Shown in pieces: positions 19,735 to 29,471 of a stretch of DNA of 64,000 bases. The first letter of the stretch is position 1; every line of letters begins with the position of its first letter. The stretch lies in the sequence record NC_017969.1; one strand, 5' to 3'. The notes below the pieces were generated by a model. That model did not search any database and was not told the origin of the DNA. It was given only the letters and a program-made list of their open reading frames with translations. The stretch comes from Escherichia phage vB_EcoS_AKFV33. A program made the position numbers and the translations under genes.

Positions 19735-20403
19735 ATGCCAAAGAAATTGAGTACGGAAGAAGTCAATAATAGACTTTTAGATAGAGGAATTGTCTTAGTT
19801 GGGGAGTATATAAATGCTAATACTAAGGCTAGTTTTAGATGTTCAGTGGGGCATGTATGGGAAACAAAACCATCAGTGTTACTTAACATGGGATTTGGAT
19901 GTCCATATTGCAGTGGGAAAGCTAAACTAACTCCTGAAGTAATAAACCAGGAATTAAGTAATAAAGGAATACAAATAGTAGGCAAATATGTAAATAATAG
20001 AACTCCGACCCTTTTTAGGTGTGAAAATGGCCATGAGTGGAATACTACTATTAATGCAGTGAAAAATTTAGACAGTAATTGCCCGATATGTAAAAAAGAA
20101 GGCAGGTCTAAAACAAAACTATATGTTATGTATAGTGAATCTTTAGGTACTAAGATTGGTATCTCTAATAAACCGGGAACTAGATTAGGAAAAATTAGCA
20201 GAAATGCTAATATACCAGATCTTAAATTATTTAAAGTATTTGATATCTTAGATTATACTAAGTGCCGTAAAATTGAGAAAGCAGCACATGAGCATTTTAA
20301 AGAATGGAACTGCTATTATAAGGATTTTGATGGTGCTACAGAGTTTTTTGATATTGAACCAGATACAGCAGTAAAATTTATTGAGGAAAATATTAATGAC
20401 TGA
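19735..20403 (+). CDS. GIY-YIG-like (T5orf172-type) protein with duplicated zinc-ribbon modules
   Basis: two repeats of F(R)C..GH.W...CP.C; C-terminal KLYVMYSE...GTKIGISN...R; strong promoter and RBS upstream. Confidence 0.55.
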   Translation: MPKKLSTEEVNNRLLDRGIVLVGEYINANTKASFRCSVGHVWETKPSVLLNMGFGCPYCSGKAKLTPEVINQELSNKGIQIVGKYVNNRTPTLFRCENGHEWNTTINAVKNLDSNCPICKKEGRSKTKLYVMYSESLGTKIGISNKPGTRLGKISRNANIPDLKLFKVFDILDYTKCRKIEKAAHEHFKEWNCYYKDFDGATEFFDIEPDTAVKFIEENIND

Positions 20404-22243
20404 AGCTGAATTATTCGATAATATCTATGGTATTACAGATGGCTTTGCAGACTCTACCCTAAAGCATAATAATGCTAATAAACCCTCTGAGCGTTTTCCT
20501 ACTCAGCGGGATATGATTGCAGGTGAACTAAGTAAATTTTTAACCTTGCAAGAAATGCCCGTACAGATCAGGACAGCACACTCAATCGGAGATATTCATT
20601 TCCATGACTTGGATTATTCCCTTTTGGGCATGACTAACTGTTGTCTAGTAGCTCTGGAAGATATGCTAAAAAATGGTATGAAGGTTGGTAATGCTGAAAT
20701 TAGCACTCCAAACTCTATCACTACTGCGGCGGCTATTACTGCTCAGATTATCACTCAGGTTAGCTCCCATCAGTATGGTGGTACTTCTGTAGATCGCCTT
20801 GATGAAGTATTAGCCCCTTATGTTCGTAAATCCTATGACAAAAATCATGCGTTTGCAAAACGTTGGACTAAGGATGAAGCCAAAGCATCAGTAATGGCTA
20901 CGGAGATGACTGAAAAAGAAGTCTATGACGCTTGTCAGGGTTTAGAATATGAAATCAATACCATGTTCAACTCTAATGGTCAGAGTCCATTTATTACCTT
21001 TGGTTTTGGTCTAGGAACTTCCTGGGAAGCACGTCTAGTACAGAAAGCAGTACTGAAAGTACGCATGGATGGTTTAGGTATCAATAAACGTACAGCTATC
21101 TTCCCGAAACTGGTATTTGTACTTCGCGATGGCGTAAATATGAAACCAGGAGATGTTAATTATGACATCAAGAAGTTAGCTATGAAATGTACTGCTGAAC
21201 GTATGTATCCAGATTATATCAGCTATGACAAGGTTGTAGAAGTTACTGGAGACTATAAAGTTTCTATGGGCTGCCGTTCATTCCTAGCTGCTGCAGAAGA
21301 TGGTGAAACTGCTGGCCGTAATAACTTAGGTGTTGTTTCTGTAAACTTGCCTAGAATTGCTATCGAAGCTGAAGGAAATATTGATCTATTCTTTGATTTG
21401 CTTGAGCTACGTGTGGATACAGCGTTAAAAGCATTGGAGTGGAGAGTTGATCGCTTAAAATACATCCAAGCTAAAGCTGCACCCATCCTCTATATGTCAG
21501 GAGCCTTTGGGTTACGCTTGGAGCCTGATGAATATGTATTCGATCATTTCTATAACCGTGCTTCTGTATCTCTAGGGTATATTGGTTGCCATGAAATGCT
21601 ACAGTTCATGTTCGGCAAAGATGTAGACACAATGTCAGAGACCTGCATCAAGTTTGTTCAGCGTGTATTGCAGTACATGCGAGATAGAGTCGATCAGAAG
21701 AAGGAAGAGACTAAGTTAGGTTATAGCCTGTATGCTACACCGTCAGAGTCCCTATGTGATAGGTTTTGCCGTTTAGACCGTGAATATTTCCCAGAGCATG
21801 AAGATATTCTGTCTAAAGGATACTACACTAACTCGCACCACCTTGATGTAGAGCGTAAAGTTGCTCCTAACGTGAAATTTGATTATGAATCTAACTTTAC
21901 GCCTATTGCTTCTGGTGGGTGCATTTCCTATGTAGAACTACCGGATATGAAACGATTCCCAGATGCACTGGAATGGGTTATTAATTATGCTGCTAGTAAG
22001 GTTCATTACTTCGGTATTAATACCCCAGTGGATTCTTGTGGTAAATGTGGATTCTTAGGTGAAACAATAGCATCCGAAGATGGATTCAAGTGCCCTATCT
22101 GTGGTAATCATGACCCCGAAACTCTTGAAGTAACTCGTCGAGTTTGTGGGTATCTTGGAAATCCAGGTGCTCGTCCGTTTAACCCAGGAAAACAACATGA
22201 GGTTATGGGCAGGGTGAAACATCAGGATATTCGAGCTAAGTAA
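20396..22243 (+). CDS. nrdD: anaerobic ribonucleoside-triphosphate reductase (class III)
   Basis: glycyl radical motif RVCGYLG and C-terminal zinc ribbon; ATG with GAGGAAAA RBS. Confidence 0.9.
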   Translation: MTEAELFDNIYGITDGFADSTLKHNNANKPSERFPTQRDMIAGELSKFLTLQEMPVQIRTAHSIGDIHFHDLDYSLLGMTNCCLVALEDMLKNGMKVGNAEISTPNSITTAAAITAQIITQVSSHQYGGTSVDRLDEVLAPYVRKSYDKNHAFAKRWTKDEAKASVMATEMTEKEVYDACQGLEYEINTMFNSNGQSPFITFGFGLGTSWEARLVQKAVLKVRMDGLGINKRTAIFPKLVFVLRDGVNMKPGDVNYDIKKLAMKCTAERMYPDYISYDKVVEVTGDYKVSMGCRSFLAAAEDGETAGRNNLGVVSVNLPRIAIEAEGNIDLFFDLLELRVDTALKALEWRVDRLKYIQAKAAPILYMSGAFGLRLEPDEYVFDHFYNRASVSLGYIGCHEMLQFMFGKDVDTMSETCIKFVQRVLQYMRDRVDQKKEETKLGYSLYATPSESLCDRFCRLDREYFPEHEDILSKGYYTNSHHLDVERKVAPNVKFDYESNFTPIASGGCISYVELPDMKRFPDALEWVINYAASKVHYFGINTPVDSCGKCGFLGETIASEDGFKCPICGNHDPETLEVTRRVCGYLGNPGARPFNPGKQHEVMGRVKHQDIRAK

Positions 22244-22250
22244 GCTAATC

Positions 22251-22287
22251 AGCCGGGTTGCTAGTCGACCTGGCTTTTATTTTATTT
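22251..22287 (+). terminator. rho-independent terminator after nrdD
   Basis: AGCCGGGT...ACCTGGCT hairpin then TTTATTTTATTT. Confidence 0.55.
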
Positions 22288-22314
22288 GCTTTCAGCCAAA
22301 AATTTATATATAAT
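22286..22314 (+). promoter_or_regulatory. early promoter (TTGCTT-17-TATAAT)
   Basis: motif plus GATTTATAAATTTGAGGAGG leader. Confidence 0.55.
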
Positions 22315-22343
22315 AGATTTATAAATTTGAGGAGGTAGGAATT

Positions 22344-22724
22344 ATGACTTTAAAACCGTATATAGTGGAGTCTACGTGTGGCAGTTTCCACCTGGGTGTG
22401 GATGATATTGCTGAGGCTGTCTTTGCTGCCACAGGTGATTACTCTCATATAGGGGGTGCTGGGTACCCCACCGTTATTGGCGATTGGGTGGAAACAAATC
22501 TAGATGTGTCGCCTTATAACCCGTATTGCTTGTTTGATGAAGACAGAGATGAGGTAAAGTGTAATCTTGAATTTGTGTATAATAGAGTATTAAAAGTATA
22601 CCAACGTAGTCCCGAGGGGTACGAAGATATTACTTGTAGTATTAAACAGTATCTTAAAGATGTATACTCTAGTTTTTCTGACGAAGGCCTAGAAACAGTT
22701 GCAGTGGAGTTTAATAATGACTAA
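22344..22724 (+). CDS. hypothetical protein (126 aa)
   Basis: ORF track; GAGGAGG RBS. Confidence 0.5.
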   Translation: MTLKPYIVESTCGSFHLGVDDIAEAVFAATGDYSHIGGAGYPTVIGDWVETNLDVSPYNPYCLFDEDRDEVKCNLEFVYNRVLKVYQRSPEGYEDITCSIKQYLKDVYSSFSDEGLETVAVEFNND

Positions 22725-22923
22725 GAATGTGAAACACCTTAAATATCGCTTAATCTATAACGGACGTATGGAAACAGAAGATCTGGCCCAATTAGCTATT
22801 AATTCTAATGAGGTTATGGTGCGTGCGCTAGCAATTGAAAAGTTGCGTGCTTCTTATGAAAATCATGTTATGGAACTAGAGGAGAAACTGTATGGACTTC
22901 TTGAATCAGAGTCTAAAAAGTAA
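22699..22923 (+). CDS. hypothetical protein (74 aa)
   Basis: ORF track. Confidence 0.35.
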   Translation: MQWSLIMTKNVKHLKYRLIYNGRMETEDLAQLAINSNEVMVRALAIEKLRASYENHVMELEEKLYGLLESESKK

Positions 22924-23086
22924 TCCAGAAAACATGCTTATTGAGCAATGGAACTTTGGTTATAATGCCGGTATAGCTACTTGTATTGCTAGATTGGATA
23001 TGCTTATTAAGCAAGAAAAGGTACGCCCGGAGGAAGCAATTTTACTCCGAAATATTATCGAAGGATTTAAGCAAGGAATCGTATAG
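22892..23086 (+). CDS. hypothetical protein (64 aa)
   Basis: ORF track. Confidence 0.35.
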   Translation: MDFLNQSLKSNPENMLIEQWNFGYNAGIATCIARLDMLIKQEKVRPEEAILLRNIIEGFKQGIV

Positions 23087-23904
23087 TGCGTAGATTAATT
23101 ATTATTAGCGGTGCAGGTTTGAGTGTTGAAAGTGGTGTACGAGCTTTTCGTACTGATACTGCTAGTGGTAAAGCACTGTGGGATGATTATGATCTAGAAG
23201 AAGTATGTAATATTCATGCCTTTCGTGGTAATTTTTATCATAAAACCCATATGTTTTACAACAAGCGTCGTGAAGAGCTAAAAACTGTTGAACCCAATCT
23301 TGCACACTTGCGTATTGGTGAATGGTATAAACAATATCCAGGTCAAGTAGTAAACTTGACTACCAACGTTGATGACCTTATTGAGCGTGCTGGCGTTCCA
23401 CATAGTGACATTCTGCACATTCACGGATATTTAAAAGAGGTTGTTGTAGCTGATAGCTACAATAGTAGCAATAAACGGATTATTGATGTAGGGTATAATT
23501 CTATTGATCCAGATGATTATAAATGGGTTAAACCTAATGTTATCTTCTTTGGTGAGGTTGCTCCTGCCTATAAAACAATGTATGAGGTTTTTGATGGTAT
23601 CACCAGTCATGATATGATCATCATTGTTGGGTGCTCTAACCAAGTAATTAACTTCTACTGGGAGCTATTTCCTATTCTGAATCTTACTGCTGCAAAACTT
23701 ATGGTAGTTAACTATTACGATAGTGCAGTAGCTATGGAACCAGGCTATCAGGGCATGACTCGTAGTGAAATGTATCAGTTAGAAGAACGTGGTATTCCTT
23801 ACTGGAGTAAAGGTGCTGTGGATGCCTTTAGTGATCCCGATTTTATTGCTCGTGTGGAAGCTCATCTAGAAGGTAAACCCTATGTCCAACAAAAGCATGT
23901 GTGA
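23086..23904 (+). CDS. Sir2-like (sirtuin-fold) protein lacking the zinc-ribbon cysteines
   Basis: N-terminal ISGAGLSVESG, catalytic-position His in IHGYL, VIFFGE motif; no CxxC pairs. Confidence 0.55.
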   Translation: MRRLIIISGAGLSVESGVRAFRTDTASGKALWDDYDLEEVCNIHAFRGNFYHKTHMFYNKRREELKTVEPNLAHLRIGEWYKQYPGQVVNLTTNVDDLIERAGVPHSDILHIHGYLKEVVVADSYNSSNKRIIDVGYNSIDPDDYKWVKPNVIFFGEVAPAYKTMYEVFDGITSHDMIIIVGCSNQVINFYWELFPILNLTAAKLMVVNYYDSAVAMEPGYQGMTRSEMYQLEERGIPYWSKGAVDAFSDPDFIARVEAHLEGKPYVQQKHV

Positions 23905-24064
23905 TCTTTTAGTGTGGCCGGACGGTAGTTGGTGCTACCGTTTCGAATTTGCTACCGATGATTTCTCATGGAAGAGTGATGATTTCTGTGTTATCTATGA
24001 AGATACAGCAGAATGGAAAGAGTTCCTTATTAAGGAGGGAGAATATGGTGAAGAAGATTTTTAA
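23882..24064 (+). CDS. hypothetical protein (60 aa)
   Basis: ORF track. Confidence 0.3.
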   Translation: MSNKSMCDLLVWPDGSWCYRFEFATDDFSWKSDDFCVIYEDTAEWKEFLIKEGEYGEEDF

Positions 24065-24230
24065 GGGTATCTGGAAAGGTCTAGTATGGTTTGTCAACCT
24101 AATCGGTATGATTACCATTTATTCTCTGTTCCTATCTGTTATGTGGGGTAAAGGTGAATTGAAGGTTCCAGTTCCTTTTACTGATGAAGTTAAAGTCTGG
24201 ACGTGGGATGCTACTGGTGGAAATAAGTAA
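24044..24230 (+). CDS. small membrane protein (~62 aa)
   Basis: AAGGAGGG RBS then ATG; one hydrophobic helix. Confidence 0.4.
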
Positions 24231-24723
24231 TACTCCTGTGATTTTCCTGGATATTGATGGGGTGCTCAATTCGAGCATCTCCCACCATCATGCACCTGAT
24301 GATGAAAAGATTTTCTTTGGGAGTGACTGGGTTTTCAAACCGCTTCTCAAGGCTTTTCAAGATTTTATTCGTCCTTCCTCGATAATGATTGTTGGGGTAT
24401 CCTCATGGTTCTCTGTCAGGAATGAGATGGAGAACGTTCAGATTATGACCGGATTAGGTCTTATCGATCGTTTTCTTGGTACAACGGATTTTACTGGTGG
24501 TGGATTATCTAGGGGTAATTCTGTTCTTCGCTTCGTTGAAAAGCATAAGCTCAAACATTGGTGTGTACTGGATGACGCTGGTGCTATGATGTATCAGTAT
24601 CCAACGGTTATAGTCAATGGTAGAACTGGAATAAATCTTCAAGATTTAAAAGCTGTTAGCTATATGCTAGAATTTAGCCCAGATCTTGAAATGTGTAAAT
24701 CCTTACAACAATTTAAGGTGTAA
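24184..24723 (+). CDS. HAD-superfamily phosphatase (possible 5'-deoxyribonucleotidase)
   Basis: motif I VIFLDIDGVLN near N-terminus. Confidence 0.6.
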   Translation: MKLKSGRGMLLVEISNTPVIFLDIDGVLNSSISHHHAPDDEKIFFGSDWVFKPLLKAFQDFIRPSSIMIVGVSSWFSVRNEMENVQIMTGLGLIDRFLGTTDFTGGGLSRGNSVLRFVEKHKLKHWCVLDDAGAMMYQYPTVIVNGRTGINLQDLKAVSYMLEFSPDLEMCKSLQQFKV

Positions 24724-24725
24724 AT

Positions 24726-25154
24726 ATGTTCAATAATGTATTCTCTAAAGAAGCTAACCCAATTTTGGTTAACTTTTGGCGTACTCTCCCAGCTAGCCTG
24801 TATAATGAGGCTATTAACTCTTTGAAAATATGGTGTGAGAATAACGAAATCTCCTTTGCTTTTAAAGATGATATTGATGAGGCTCCCTGTATTGGTTTAA
24901 TTGTGCAGGTAGAGGAGGGTCTTGAAGAGATTGTGGGCTGGAAAGAGTTAGACGAAATGGGCTTAGTTTTTGCGTTAAATTATAAACTGTTTATGCCTGC
25001 TAAGCATCGCCTTGTTGTTAACTATAAAACTAGTGAATCTCCTGGTTTTCAGGTTAATGAACGTTATGGTTGGTCTTACTCACCGGAAGAAGTAAATGAG
25101 GGGATTCAGAAACTTCGACGTTTCGGGTATATGATCCCGGGTTTAACTGCTTAA
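24726..25154 (+). CDS. hypothetical protein (142 aa), paralog of next ORF
   Basis: shares PCIG...W.EL..M.L..ALN..LF.P...PGL with 25164-25556. Confidence 0.5.
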   Translation: MFNNVFSKEANPILVNFWRTLPASLYNEAINSLKIWCENNEISFAFKDDIDEAPCIGLIVQVEEGLEEIVGWKELDEMGLVFALNYKLFMPAKHRLVVNYKTSESPGFQVNERYGWSYSPEEVNEGIQKLRRFGYMIPGLTA

Positions 25155-25163
25155 GGAGGCAGG

Positions 25164-25556
25164 ATGGAACAAGTATATTGGCGTCAGATTGACCCTAGTT
25201 TGGTGAAACGTGCGGAGAAGCTGCTACAACGTTGGTTGGGGGTAAGGCAAGCCTCCTTCTCTTTTCCGGAGCAGCAAACGGATGATCCATGCATTGGCGT
25301 TTTCCTGTCTGGATATGCCGGGGAATGGGAGATGGATTGGAATGAATTGTCCGCTATGAGTTTAATTGTTGCCCTAAATTTCTCTTTGTTCCATCCACGT
25401 GGTTTGGCCATATGTCGTGTGCCTGATGACGGTTGTTCGCCCCATCTTTTACAGGTGGAAGATGATATTTGGGAGTACACTCCAGATATTCTCAAAGAAG
25501 CTAAAGAACAATTAAACCGTGTTGGGATTTATGTTCCAGGCCTAAATGATGAATGA
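25164..25556 (+). CDS. hypothetical protein (130 aa), paralog of previous ORF
   Basis: as above. Confidence 0.5.
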   Translation: MEQVYWRQIDPSLVKRAEKLLQRWLGVRQASFSFPEQQTDDPCIGVFLSGYAGEWEMDWNELSAMSLIVALNFSLFHPRGLAICRVPDDGCSPHLLQVEDDIWEYTPDILKEAKEQLNRVGIYVPGLNDE

Positions 25557-25647
25557 TTTTTATTAGCTGAAATTTGTAATCCGGGCTATTAGTGCTCGGA
25601 TTATTACATAATCTTTCCAGTCGATTGACAGTCAAAATAAATTGTCG

Positions 25648-25678
25648 TTGACAATTTGGATGGATTATGTAATAATAT
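25648..25678 (+). promoter_or_regulatory. promoter with duplicated TTGACA boxes upstream of second HNH gene
   Basis: TTGACA at 25625 and 25648, TAATAA/TAATAT -10 candidates. Confidence 0.4.
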
Positions 25679-25695
25679 ATGTATTGGAGGTGAGG

Positions 25696-26148
25696 ATGTC
25701 ATTCACACAGCAAGAACTTTTAGATAACTTCCGATATGAAGATGGTAAGTTATTTAGAACTACAGGAAGAAATGCAGGGAAAGAATGTTGTGTTTCTACG
25801 GGTAACGGATATTATCGTATATCTCTAGGGAATAGGACTATGCTTCGGCATAGAGCAATATTTTTAATGCATCATGGATACTTACCTGATTTAGTAGATC
25901 ATGTGAATACTATAAAAGGTGATGATCGTATTGAAAATCTTAGAGAGCAGACAGTGTCCGGTAATCTAAGAAATATCAAATATAAGAAAGGAATGCATGT
26001 TTACCCTTCTGGTAGTAAGAACTGGCAAGTAGTATTTACTATTAACCGTAAACGTATAGTTAAAGGAACATATGACAACTATGAGGTTGCATGTTCTATG
26101 GCCAAGATGTTTAGAGGTCAATTATACGGTAGGGAATCAATCCAGTAA
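25696..26148 (+). CDS. HNH homing endonuclease with AP2-type domain (second copy)
   Basis: HRAIFLMHHGYLPDLVDHVNTIKGDDRIENLREQT plus AP2-like C-terminus; start moved to ATG after GGAGGTGAGG RBS. Confidence 0.7.
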   Translation: MSFTQQELLDNFRYEDGKLFRTTGRNAGKECCVSTGNGYYRISLGNRTMLRHRAIFLMHHGYLPDLVDHVNTIKGDDRIENLREQTVSGNLRNIKYKKGMHVYPSGSKNWQVVFTINRKRIVKGTYDNYEVACSMAKMFRGQLYGRESIQ

Positions 26149-26681: not shown

Positions 26682-29471
26682 GTGTTTTCTATCCTCCAAG
26701 GTCACGCCGGGTTTTCTCGTGATTTAGCAACAGGTATTTGGCGAGAAATCAAAGCGGAAGATTATACCTTTGCCAAACGATTCTCGAAAGAGCATCCAGA
26801 AGGTAAACCAGCTTCTATGCCCTTCAAATTTGATGTAATAGAAGAGCACGACCCACAAAGCCTTGCCGAAATGTTACCACTTATGAGACGTTTAACGTCT
26901 GACCCTCATATCGTTGCGGTACGAGGTCGATGTCTTGCACCTAAAAATAATGTGCGACGTAAGAAAGGTAACTTTAATGTATCCAACCCTAGCAATATTA
27001 TTGCTATGGACGTGGATGGTATCCTAGATACCGGTGGGTATGACAAGTTTAATCTTGTAGGTATGGCTCGACATATTATTAGGATGTTAAATAGTATTAG
27101 TGAGGATATGTTTCCTCTTGATGCAGGGTTTATCGCTCATGCATCGTCTTCGGCTGGGCTAAAACCAGGTATCCGAATGCACTTAATACTAGAATCTAAT
27201 GTTAAGGTAACTCAGGGTCAAATCAAATTCTTATTTACATCTATCAACGAAAGTAGTAGACAAAAGTATGGCTTTGATATTGCCGACTTAGCTTATTACT
27301 CTTCCGTACAGCTCCATTATTTTGCAGATCCGTTATTTACCGATGGTATAGTAGATCCGTTTAAAGCGGAGAGTAAGCCACGTCTGGTATATGTTAAAGG
27401 TTCGAAGGTAAATTTGCCCAATAATCTGGTTGACTATGAAACAACTAGAGGGGAATTTAAGGAAGAGTTTTATTCTTTACTTGATCAAATTAAAGGCAAA
27501 AAGATTGCTTCTGATAAAGTAGAAGAAACCATCAGCGAATTGGAAGAAGCCGAGGATGGGGTGTACTTGCGTATTATCCCCAAACTCTACCATAGAGCAT
27601 TAGAGGATGGTGTTGATTTCGCATGGCTAGAACGTGAGATTAAACCCGCTTTATCTGAATATATTGCAACTAAAGATAACAGTCGTAATATTCAAGATTA
27701 CTTTAATAACGGTCGTAAGCAGGCTCTCAAAGCGTTTGTTAATAATTCTAAACGTGAGATCCCATTAAATCTGAAGGGTGTTCCACTCAAGAAATTAGAA
27801 GTGGATTCTCCACCAGAAGTTCCGTACCTGAAGATTAACATTGTGCCTCCAAAAGGCCATATAACATTTGTTAAGGCAAGTCTTGGTACTGGTAAGACTA
27901 CGGCAGTAACTAAATGGCTGGACGCAGGTGTTCTTCCTGGCAACTTTTTAGCAGTTACAAATACTAGAGCACTGGTATCTTCAAACGCTAAGAAATTTAG
28001 CGCAGGACAATATGATAAGTCTGTAGATATGCTCAACTTTAAACGTGGAGCTATTGATCGTATGTCTACAACTATCCACTCTTTGCATAAGTTCAAAAGT
28101 TTTATTGGTCAAATAGATACCATTTTTATTGATGAATGTGATGCTGTAATGAATGATCTATTATTCGCACCTGTTGTTAAGCAACGTCGCGAATGTATTC
28201 AAGTTCTACGTGACATCCTCATGACAGCTAAAACTGTAATTCTATCTGATGGGGATATTAGTGCAGAAACAATTGAAGCATATGGTTCTCTAATTGATTT
28301 TGATAAACCAGTAGCATTTTATAATCATCACCGTAAGATGCTGTCAAAAGCTCATGCTTATGAGTTCCCGGATGAATCCAGTATTTGGGTTGCACTTCAG
28401 ACCTCTCTAGAGATGGGTGAGAAATCTATCCTAGTATCTGATTGTGGGCCGGATGAACTGAATGAGAAGGGCATGGCGTTGCGTCGTAATACGGGTGCGT
28501 TAGTTAAGGAAATCCACTCAAACTCTACGTCTGATGTAGATATTCGACGTATTCTGGATTACACAACTAATGAGCTAATTGACCAACAAATTGATTGCTT
28601 ATTATGTAGTCCATCCGTAACTAGTGGTGTTGACTTCAACTATTTTGATAACGTATTCGTTATTACTAGAACCAGCAACCAAGCGCCAAACATGCGTTTC
28701 CAAGCAATCAGGCGCGACCGTGGTGCTCAGAACATTTATTATTTTATTGATAAATCTACGAGTGGATTCTCCGCAGGTTCTGAACAATATAATATTGATG
28801 AGGGTTGGCTGGAGTTAGCACAGCAATTATACGCACGTCGTAGGGAGCTGGAATCTAGGAATTATACTAGTACCTTACGTTATTACTTGCTTGATCAGGG
28901 TGCAACTATTGATATTTTCAGTGAAAGCTGGGGAACTATCGAAGGTGCAGGCAAAGAGTATACAGAAGAGCGAATCAAAGCCATTTTGTATTCAACTCCT
29001 GATTATTGCGCTCCACGTCATGCGGATGCGTATGAAGCTAAACTACTTCTTGTTCGCTACTATCATCTTGAGTCTATTAAAGATGTAACAGTTGAGCATG
29101 TTGAACAATATATCAAGGATAAACCTAATGATCGGGCTGCATTCTTCCATAAAATGCACGAGATGTTCTGGGAAGATATTAAGAAGTGTTCAAATGTCAC
29201 TATCAAACCATTCATAGAAGCTCTGAAAGGTAAGAAGAAAGATTTCTTCCTTAAAACAGGTCAGAGTGCTAACCCAAAATATGCCAGAATGTATCTTGGT
29301 ATGATGGGTATTGGTAAAGATATGAACACGGAGAATATTGTAGACTGGTACAGAACTTATTGTAAAATCGAGTGTATGCCAATCCCATATAAGTTTATGA
29401 CTGATGAGGAGAAACATATGCATGATGAAGCAATGGCAGAGCTAGGTGCTAGAAATGACAGTGAAGAATAA
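26682..29471 (+). CDS. large P-loop NTPase, putative helicase / replication-initiation protein
   Basis: Walker A ASLGTGKTT, DExD-like IFIDECD, TSGVDF; GTG start 7 nt after GGAG. Confidence 0.65.
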   Translation: MFSILQGHAGFSRDLATGIWREIKAEDYTFAKRFSKEHPEGKPASMPFKFDVIEEHDPQSLAEMLPLMRRLTSDPHIVAVRGRCLAPKNNVRRKKGNFNVSNPSNIIAMDVDGILDTGGYDKFNLVGMARHIIRMLNSISEDMFPLDAGFIAHASSSAGLKPGIRMHLILESNVKVTQGQIKFLFTSINESSRQKYGFDIADLAYYSSVQLHYFADPLFTDGIVDPFKAESKPRLVYVKGSKVNLPNNLVDYETTRGEFKEEFYSLLDQIKGKKIASDKVEETISELEEAEDGVYLRIIPKLYHRALEDGVDFAWLEREIKPALSEYIATKDNSRNIQDYFNNGRKQALKAFVNNSKREIPLNLKGVPLKKLEVDSPPEVPYLKINIVPPKGHITFVKASLGTGKTTAVTKWLDAGVLPGNFLAVTNTRALVSSNAKKFSAGQYDKSVDMLNFKRGAIDRMSTTIHSLHKFKSFIGQIDTIFIDECDAVMNDLLFAPVVKQRRECIQVLRDILMTAKTVILSDGDISAETIEAYGSLIDFDKPVAFYNHHRKMLSKAHAYEFPDESSIWVALQTSLEMGEKSILVSDCGPDELNEKGMALRRNTGALVKEIHSNSTSDVDIRRILDYTTNELIDQQIDCLLCSPSVTSGVDFNYFDNVFVITRTSNQAPNMRFQAIRRDRGAQNIYYFIDKSTSGFSAGSEQYNIDEGWLELAQQLYARRRELESRNYTSTLRYYLLDQGATIDIFSESWGTIEGAGKEYTEERIKAILYSTPDYCAPRHADAYEAKLLLVRYYHLESIKDVTVEHVEQYIKDKPNDRAAFFHKMHEMFWEDIKKCSNVTIKPFIEALKGKKKDFFLKTGQSANPKYARMYLGMMGIGKDMNTENIVDWYRTYCKIECMPIPYKFMTDEEKHMHDEAMAELGARNDSEE

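Follow-up and report, generated by a model that had tools for sequence, protein, structure and literature searches.

The window analysed here is the whole of a 64,000-nucleotide stretch of Escherichia phage vB_EcoS_AKFV33 (NC_017969.1). Between nrdD and the replication genes it contains a variable early-gene block, in which a preliminary description had placed a sirtuin-like gene without zinc-binding cysteines, together with tiny open reading frames (ORFs), a small membrane protein and a HAD phosphatase carrying a DxDGV motif. Both the position and the neighbours were recovered, and the small ORFs match conserved PHROG families. The two enzyme genes of the block, named after their counterparts in phage T5, are the following.

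23086..23904, + strand: sirtuin, homologue of T5.102, zinc-ligand-free, class III / CobB-SIRT5-like (Pfam, phmmer, alignment, AF2/Foldseek, NCBIfam)
24184..24723 (start at 24184, 24208 or 24217), + strand: HAD_SAK_2 phosphatase, homologue of T5.105 (Pfam, alignment)

The sirtuin ORF encodes 272 amino acids (aa) from a GTG start with AAGGA upstream, and the first base of this GTG is the G of the TAG stop of the preceding 64-aa ORF. The sirtuin-fold signature that the preliminary description had read from it is present, with GAG at residue 9, SG at 16, IHGYL at 112 and VIFFGE at 152. The ORF matches Pfam SIR2 (PF02146) at 87.4 bits, the cut-off being 24 (E = 1.5e-24; positions 1-178 of the 180 in the model are covered), a score that is, for a match between sequence and profile, far beyond chance. 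SIR2 is its only Pfam match at E up to 1, and no match to an ADP-ribosyltransferase fold was obtained at that threshold. The key residues are GAGxS (9-13), F21, R22, Y58-x-x-R61, N94, D96, H113 and FFGE (154-157). In 28 homologues with 55-85% identity, G9, A10, G11, S13, S16, G17, F21, R22, Y58 and R61 are invariant, and so are N94, D96, H113, G114, F154, F155, E157, G182, S184 and N209. H113-G114 aligns with the catalytic HG of CobB, and FYNKRR, which holds Y58 and R61, with the FYNARR of CobB; we take these two residues to correspond to Y102 and R105 of SIRT5, a pair that binds the anionic (acyl) group in that enzyme. Departures from the canonical sequence are TTNVD for TQNID (the Gln being replaced by T93) and GCSNQVIN for GTSxxVxP. 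Because the set of catalytic residues and of residues binding nicotinamide adenine dinucleotide (NAD) is complete, the enzyme should cleave NAD+. The ORF thus encodes a real sirtuin with its catalytic and NAD-binding residues intact, and the product looks catalytically competent.

The solved structures closest in sequence are E. coli CobB (phmmer, 9e-18), then Sir2Af and SIRT5. An AlphaFold2 (AF2) model of the sirtuin was built from 28 homologues (predicted local distance difference test score, pLDDT, 88; predicted template modelling score, pTM, 0.87). Its best Foldseek matches are CobB structures (1s5p and 6rx*, E about 1e-16, TMt 0.82-0.85), and CobB, Sir2Af1 and SIRT5 were all found at TM 0.7-0.85; every fold match is a sirtuin. 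Profile, alignment and fold are all positive, and the catalytic residues are in place, so neither outcome that would have refuted the preliminary description, a missing SIR2 profile match or missing catalytic residues, occurred. The best NCBIfam matches are also CobB models (NF040867, 89 bits against a cut-off of 320; NF001753, 99 against 243); since these scores fall far under the equivalog cut-offs, the protein is not a CobB orthologue. It is a single-domain protein from a virulent phage.

The absence of CxxC zinc-binding cysteines, also claimed before, is borne out: the whole protein has two cysteines (C41 and C183) and no CxxC. Residues 115-148, the segment of the four-cysteine zinc site in the small domain, contain none, and all 28 aligned homologues have 0 or 1 cysteine in this ribbon segment. 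From the catalytic HG to KPNV there are 34 residues, about the length of the CobB zinc ribbon, and AF2 models confident beta strands there. Given this length and these strands, the ribbon has been retained with loss of its metal ligands, and not deleted.

A tblastn search with the sirtuin protein matched 996 phage records, and a profile search against 1.84 billion representative proteins gave 114 matches at E up to 1e-30. Of the best 150 profile matches, 116 could be read in both places of interest, the TxN motif and the ribbon segment. The four ribbon cysteines are lacking in 35 of 41 members of the TTN type (TTNVD), whereas they are kept in 63 of 75 members of the TQN type (TQN[IV]D; Fisher p = 1.6e-13, not corrected for relatedness). 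An (I/V)GY ribbon motif is common to many members of both types. As far as such motifs can define it, the phage sirtuin family is marked by the ribbon DIGY and the Y-x-x-R pair and has a zinc-bearing TQN branch and a zinc-free TTN branch. The few family clusters checked are mostly metagenomic sequences, with one labelled phage. T5-like phages have two very different alleles of the sirtuin: one shares about 90-97% identity with the window protein, the other about 51%.

The ORF at 24184-24723 carries FLDIDGVLN and matches Pfam HAD_SAK_2 (PF18143, named "HAD domain in Swiss Army Knife RNA repair proteins") at E = 2.9e-20 and 73.5 bits, where the cut-off is 27.5, and the match spans positions 1-138 of the 139 in the model. 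HAD motifs I-IV are intact: among 17 homologues (29-75% identity), D23, D25, S73, S74, R110 and D130 never vary, and D131 hardly does. There is no sizeable cap insert between motifs I and II; in the HAD classification, the capless type usually acts on macromolecules. A search against PDB sequences gave no match even at E up to 10. The earlier reading of this gene as a nucleotide phosphatase holds for the phosphatase, whose motifs are intact, but has to be corrected for the nucleotide: the protein is no generic nucleotide phosphatase, but belongs to HAD_SAK_2, has no visible cap insert and has a predicted role on RNA ends. That role of HAD_SAK_2, in RNA repair or on RNA ends, is a computational prediction (PMC9503650), and some GenBank records name the HAD gene "RNA repair protein".

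The HAD gene bears the label "Sir2 (NAD-dependent deacetylase)" in RefSeq and PHROG, namely in the window (24184-24723), at T5.105 (L001, 5847-6353) and in phage DT57C (L009, 3480-3752). The entry PHROG 18062, which has 92 aa and the name Sir2, aligns with the C-terminal half of HAD and has a weak match to residues 169-216 of Sir2; in this it is like a chimera found in DT57C, in which a Sir2 fragment is joined to the HAD C-terminus. The name "Sir2" for the HAD gene is an artefact of annotation that many T5-like records have taken over.

Linkage and loss of the pair in other phages

The neighbourhoods of 59 IMG/VR loci with a sirtuin homologue were surveyed, with 10 kb of flank each. Of the 31 T5-like loci, 28 have HAD_SAK_2 downstream of Sir2, at a distance of 0.8-1.3 kb. 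Two distant T5-likes, Pantoea phage AAS21 and a metagenomic contig, have the two genes the other way round (HAD, an ORF of 118-120 aa, SIR2); nrdD, the small ORFs and the pair of DUF7415 genes that ends the block in the window are all absent there, and the HAD-SIR2 linkage persists.

Raoultella phage Ro1 shows a tightly packed order of metallophosphoesterase, T4-type RNA ligase 1 (Rnl1), cREC, AAA_33 kinase, SIR2 and DNA ligase. The sirtuin homologues of Ro1 and of two metagenomic V5-like contigs (Vequintavirinae) are 58-60% identical to the window protein, and in the two contigs the kinase and metallophosphoesterase genes are transcribed divergently and stand just upstream of Rnl1, cREC and SIR2. 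Rnl1, kinase, metallophosphoesterase and DNA ligase were found together in 11 V5-like loci of IMG/VR, and a 12th such locus ends at a contig edge. Furthermore, on a 607-kb megaphage contig an Rnl1 gene lies two genes upstream of a Sir2 homologue with 35% identity. Because this homologue keeps four cysteines, the association with the ligase is not tied to zinc loss. The order on this contig (L074, 7582-10708) is an Rnl1-type ligase, an arginase-family gene, a 109-aa ORF and the four-cysteine Sir2 with DIGY and Y-x-x-R. An Rnl2-type query gave no match within 10 kb of any Sir2 locus.

Phage DT57C provides a natural loss. The N-terminal core of its Sir2 is missing, and a second deletion fuses about aa 171-220 of Sir2 to about aa 139-179 of HAD; neither enzyme keeps its catalytic core, the small ORFs that separate the two genes are missing as well, and the DUF7415 genes remain. 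As both enzymes are lost in this phage, the Sir2-HAD module is dispensable.

The rest of the early-gene block

A megablast search with positions 22300-25600 matched 444 phage records, nearly all of them T5-like Escherichia or Salmonella phages (best match vB_EcoS_FFH_1 with 96.6%; T5 with 92%). The block corresponds to T5.100-T5.107 and is flanked by nrdD (T5.099; 20381-22243 in the window) and the replication-origin-binding gene (T5.108; 26682-29471), as in T5, whose record annotates an early promoter at the start of the block and a terminator at its end. The other features of the block are as follows.

22251..22275, + strand: terminator-like hairpin after nrdD, bounding the block on its upstream side (in T5 a terminator and an early promoter are annotated at this position)
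22344..22724, + strand: conserved T5.100-like acidic protein, 126 aa, isoelectric point (pI) 4.2, no family match (comparison with T5-like loci)
22717..22923, + strand: T5.101-like small protein, phrog_5236, its ATG overlapping the end of the preceding gene (PHROG)
22892..23086, + strand: 64-aa ORF, phrog_5827, its stop overlapping the GTG of Sir2 (PHROG)
23882..24064, + strand: acidic 60-aa ORF, phrog_5116, pI 4.05 (PHROG)
24045..24230, + strand: basic 61-aa protein, phrog_11166, with a single hydrophobic stretch that probably spans the membrane; strong ribosome-binding site AAGGAGG upstream (PHROG)
24726..25154, + strand: DUF7415 protein, homologue of T5.106, first paralogue (Pfam)
25164..25556, + strand: DUF7415 protein, homologue of T5.107, second paralogue and last gene of the block (Pfam)

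The T5.100-like protein, whose AF2 model is unusable (pLDDT 42), co-diverges with Sir2 in Salmonella phage rutana and lies between HAD and Sir2 in AAS21. It was considered as an obligatory third partner of the pair and rejected, being detected in only 12 of the 31 T5-like loci. When the rutana locus (L008) is compared with window positions 20381-25556, Sir2 shows 52% identity, the T5.100-like protein 53% and the 64-aa ORF 26%, and the genes interleaved with them show 94% (nrdD), 86% (T5.101), 90% (60-aa ORF) and 86% (HAD). Such a pattern could come from mosaic exchange or from co-adaptation of Sir2 with the T5.100-like protein.

The two DUF7415 paralogues share 32% identity, and the T5 record notes that the pair is similar to ORFs of the T4-like Aeromonas phage Aeh1. 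As DT57C retains them although its Sir2 and HAD are deleted, they are probably not part of the module and probably work independently. After the second DUF7415 gene and before the origin-binding gene, an HNH_3 homing-endonuclease gene is inserted at 25642-26148, a place where T5 has no gene, with a near-consensus promoter-like site before it (25648-25676). On the other side of the block, a 222-aa ORF (19735-20403) runs into the start of nrdD. Cys-pair motifs recur in it, and its C-terminal part looks by eye like a homing-endonuclease domain of the T5orf172/GIY-YIG type. The window also carries 11 transfer RNA (tRNA) genes on the minus strand at 666-5873 (Lys, Asp, Asn, Cys, Phe, Trp, Glu, Tyr, Leu, Ser, Arg), which form the background for any role against tRNA-cutting defences.

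Possible roles of the pair

Our leading proposal, to which we would give somewhat less than an even chance, is that the early, zinc-free, class III-like sirtuin ADP-ribosylates an acceptor phosphate, the most plausible one being the 2'-phosphate that nuclease damage leaves on RNA, and that the HAD protein then removes a terminal phosphate. The block would in this case supply, early in infection, an NAD+-consuming ADP-ribosyl transferase of sirtuin type and a companion phosphomonoesterase. Their likely task would be the healing of RNA ends, mainly those of tRNA cut by host nucleases, with the sirtuin in place of Tpt1/KptA. The RNA 2'-phosphate would attack C1'' of NAD+ with release of nicotinamide, His113 would activate the ribose 2''-OH, and the phosphate would leave as ADP-ribose cyclic phosphate. 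HAD_SAK_2 would remove a terminal phosphate either from the RNA or from the phospho-ADP-ribose by-product, and the enzyme for the final ligation in T5-like phages would have to be the host's. What the analysis shows is the fold, the complete set of catalytic and NAD-binding residues, the lost zinc ligands, the intact HAD motifs and the gene linkages; which substrate serves as acceptor, how the steps follow each other and which enzyme ligates are what we infer in this scheme.

In yeast, the pathway of Tpt1, Cpd1 and Poa1 is established, and Cpd1 and Poa1 act downstream of the phosphorylated ADP-ribose product. By analogy, and this is our main argument that goes further than the literature, cREC, metallophosphoesterase and HAD may be the kinds of enzyme needed to process phosphorylated ADP-ribose, and a deacylase would yield no such product. 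The invariant Y58-x-x-R61 pair, a predicted binding site for an anionic group, is also counted for RNA repair, and so are the catalytic competence of the sirtuin, the gene clusters with Rnl1 in Vequintavirinae and on the megaphage contig, the persistent linkage to HAD_SAK_2 and the loss of both enzymes in DT57C. The neighbourhood survey agrees with the RNA-repair proposal of Iyer et al. (2022; PMC9503650), who arrived at it independently. A broader version, which we consider doubtful, is that the sirtuin family as such transfers ADP-ribose from NAD+ to RNA phosphates, in which case it would be the first sirtuin directed at nucleic acids and a convergent substitute for Tpt1/KptA, with HAD_SAK_2, cREC or metallophosphoesterase clearing the by-product.

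Several observations weigh against RNA-end healing. The function of HAD_SAK_2 is itself predicted, and a literature search for experimental work on phage sirtuins found none. The residues that we take to line the acyl-lysine tunnel (F21, H113, V152 and F154) are all kept, as in true deacylases. Among the 59 loci, 16 have no queried RNA-repair neighbour at all, and Pfam scans of two of these partnerless loci (Phapecoctavirus-like and Felix-O1-like) showed uninformative neighbourhoods. Because the neighbourhoods within a lineage are shared by descent, the survey amounts to about four independent associations. No Rnl1-type ligase lies within 10 kb of Sir2 in any T5-like locus. Rnl1 matched 667 phage records by tblastn, of which 14 are Salmonella-named, against more than 270 records of Salmonella T5-like phages, and there is no T5-like record among the matches listed; an RNA ligase is likely to be absent from T5-like phages, whose whole genomes were not profile-scanned. 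Nor was a polynucleotide kinase seen near the module in the 10-kb flanks of the T5-like loci. With neither kinase nor ligase near the module, the repair pathway is incomplete in this phage and would need host enzymes. Additionally, T4-like phages carry HAD_SAK_2 without Sir2 in the 10-kb stretch examined, and in some Vequintavirinae HAD_SAK_2 stands just upstream of Prs (ribose-phosphate pyrophosphokinase), with Nampt (nicotinamide phosphoribosyltransferase) following.

The strongest alternative, still rather unlikely in our estimate, is a conventional NAD+-dependent lysine deacylase of CobB/SIRT5 type, probably with a preference for acidic acyl groups, that remodels host or phage proteins during takeover and has nothing to do with the HAD protein. 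This is how GenBank records and PMC5107563 read the gene, and it accords with the closest solved relatives in sequence and fold (E. coli CobB, Sir2Af1/2 and SIRT5), with CobB models as best NCBIfam matches, and with the conserved Y-x-x-R pair and tunnel residues, which would perhaps suit a desuccinylase. However, the scores of 89-99 bits lie far from the CobB equivalog cut-offs of 243-320, the zinc ligands are lost, and the Pro of the GTSxxVxP stretch is Asn or Asp here and variable in the wider family. A deacylase also gives no reason why the gene is found repeatedly with HAD_SAK_2 or with genes for RNA ligase, kinase and phosphoesterase.

We regard as improbable that the Sir2-HAD pair acts on small NAD-derived molecules and not on macromolecules, be it by making or destroying a phosphorylated ADP-ribose metabolite or signal, or by feeding a recycling loop for NAD. 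The HAD_SAK_2-Prs-Nampt neighbourhood, seen in Serratia phage ChuuTotoro and in a related contig (L014), ties the phosphatase family to NAD or phosphoribosyl pyrophosphate (PRPP) metabolism. In a T4-like contig, a zinc-free TTNVD Sir2 homologue has Nampt directly upstream. V5-like phages carry Prs and Nampt at a distance of 5-8 kb from their Sir2 cluster, and a jumbo-phage Sir2 homologue is followed by a nucleoside 2-deoxyribosyltransferase-like gene. The Prs and Nampt links fit any NAD-consuming role, the small-molecule one included. Against it, there are no NAD-salvage genes beside the module in T5-like loci, the HAD protein without sizeable cap insert resembles the type that acts on macromolecules, and no candidate ligand is known. 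In ChuuTotoro (L010, 7001-10217) the HAD and Prs genes overlap by 4 nucleotides and no Sir2 is annotated in the 38 kb viewed; in L014 (6001-9569) a 116-aa ORF lies between HAD_SAK_2 and Prs.

Counter-defence against NAD-depleting immunity, or an NADase for host takeover, as proposed in the preliminary description, draws on the general idea that phages and hosts compete for NAD and is very improbable, because the sirtuin consumes NAD+ and so cannot restore it, there is no PADLOC match, no sensor domain, no match to SIR2_2-type defence sirtuins and no NAD-salvage gene beside the module, and the module is dispensable in DT57C.

If RNA-end healing is the true role, the substrates of sirtuins would be extended by a new class, and T5-type phages would own a previously unrecognised means to survive tRNA-cutting host nucleases, which would be relevant to phage host range and phage therapy. 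As T5 is genetically tractable and DT57C offers a natural deletion, the role of the pair is directly testable.

Comparison with known systems

T5.102 has been annotated as "Sir2-like" or "cobB" since the T5 genome records of 2004-05. Skliros et al. (2016; PMC5107563) described the Sir2/CobB proteins of the Vibrio phages KVP40, phiSt2 and phiGrn1 as being without zinc ligand and associated with NAD salvage genes, and listed T5 among the carriers. These sirtuins are about 34-42% identical to the window protein and, unlike it, have no HAD_SAK_2 neighbour. Iyer, Burroughs, Anantharaman and Aravind (2022; PMC9503650, section 3.7.3) defined a distinct phage sirtuin clade with three types of neighbourhood, of which type 3, typified by Escherichia phage SP15, combines the sirtuin with a Swiss-army-knife HAD in T5-like phages. 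They proposed that the sirtuin acts like KptA/Tpt1, removing 2'-phosphates from RNA in repair. The window protein is a type 3 member of this clade with no material difference; T5.102 is 92.5% identical to it and V5-type members 60%. The gene, the loss of the zinc ligands, the neighbourhood and the mechanistic hypothesis are thus already on record, and as a finding of a genome scan the locus adds little to what has been published.

With E. coli CobB, SIRT5 and Sir2Af1 the window sirtuin shares the fold, GAGxS, the N/D residues, HG, the Y-x-x-R pair and the FGE loop. It differs from CobB in having no zinc cysteines, in an identity of about 24% and in scores below the equivalog cut-offs, and its gene neighbourhood is RNA-repair-like and not metabolic.

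The Sir2 NADases of defence systems (ThsA, DSR1/DSR2, SIR2-HerA and SPARSA) resemble the window sirtuin in placing a Sir2 fold in the conflict between phage and host, and the defence-associated enzymes are not known to have a zinc ribbon either. However, they are host-encoded, fused to or paired with sensor domains and members of other sequence families, while the window sirtuin has PF02146 only. PADLOC gave no match for Sir2, HAD, the T5.100-like protein or both DUF7415 proteins.

In both Tpt1 and sirtuin chemistry, attack on C1'' of NAD+ frees nicotinamide, and a step via the ribose 2''-OH follows. The folds are unrelated, Tpt1 having the ADP-ribosyltransferase fold, and the likeness of the window sirtuin to Tpt1/KptA would be a functional analogy only. 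The parallel with Tpt1/KptA extends to gene context, as other phages place the sirtuin homologue near genes for ligase, kinase and cyclic-phosphodiesterase-like enzymes.

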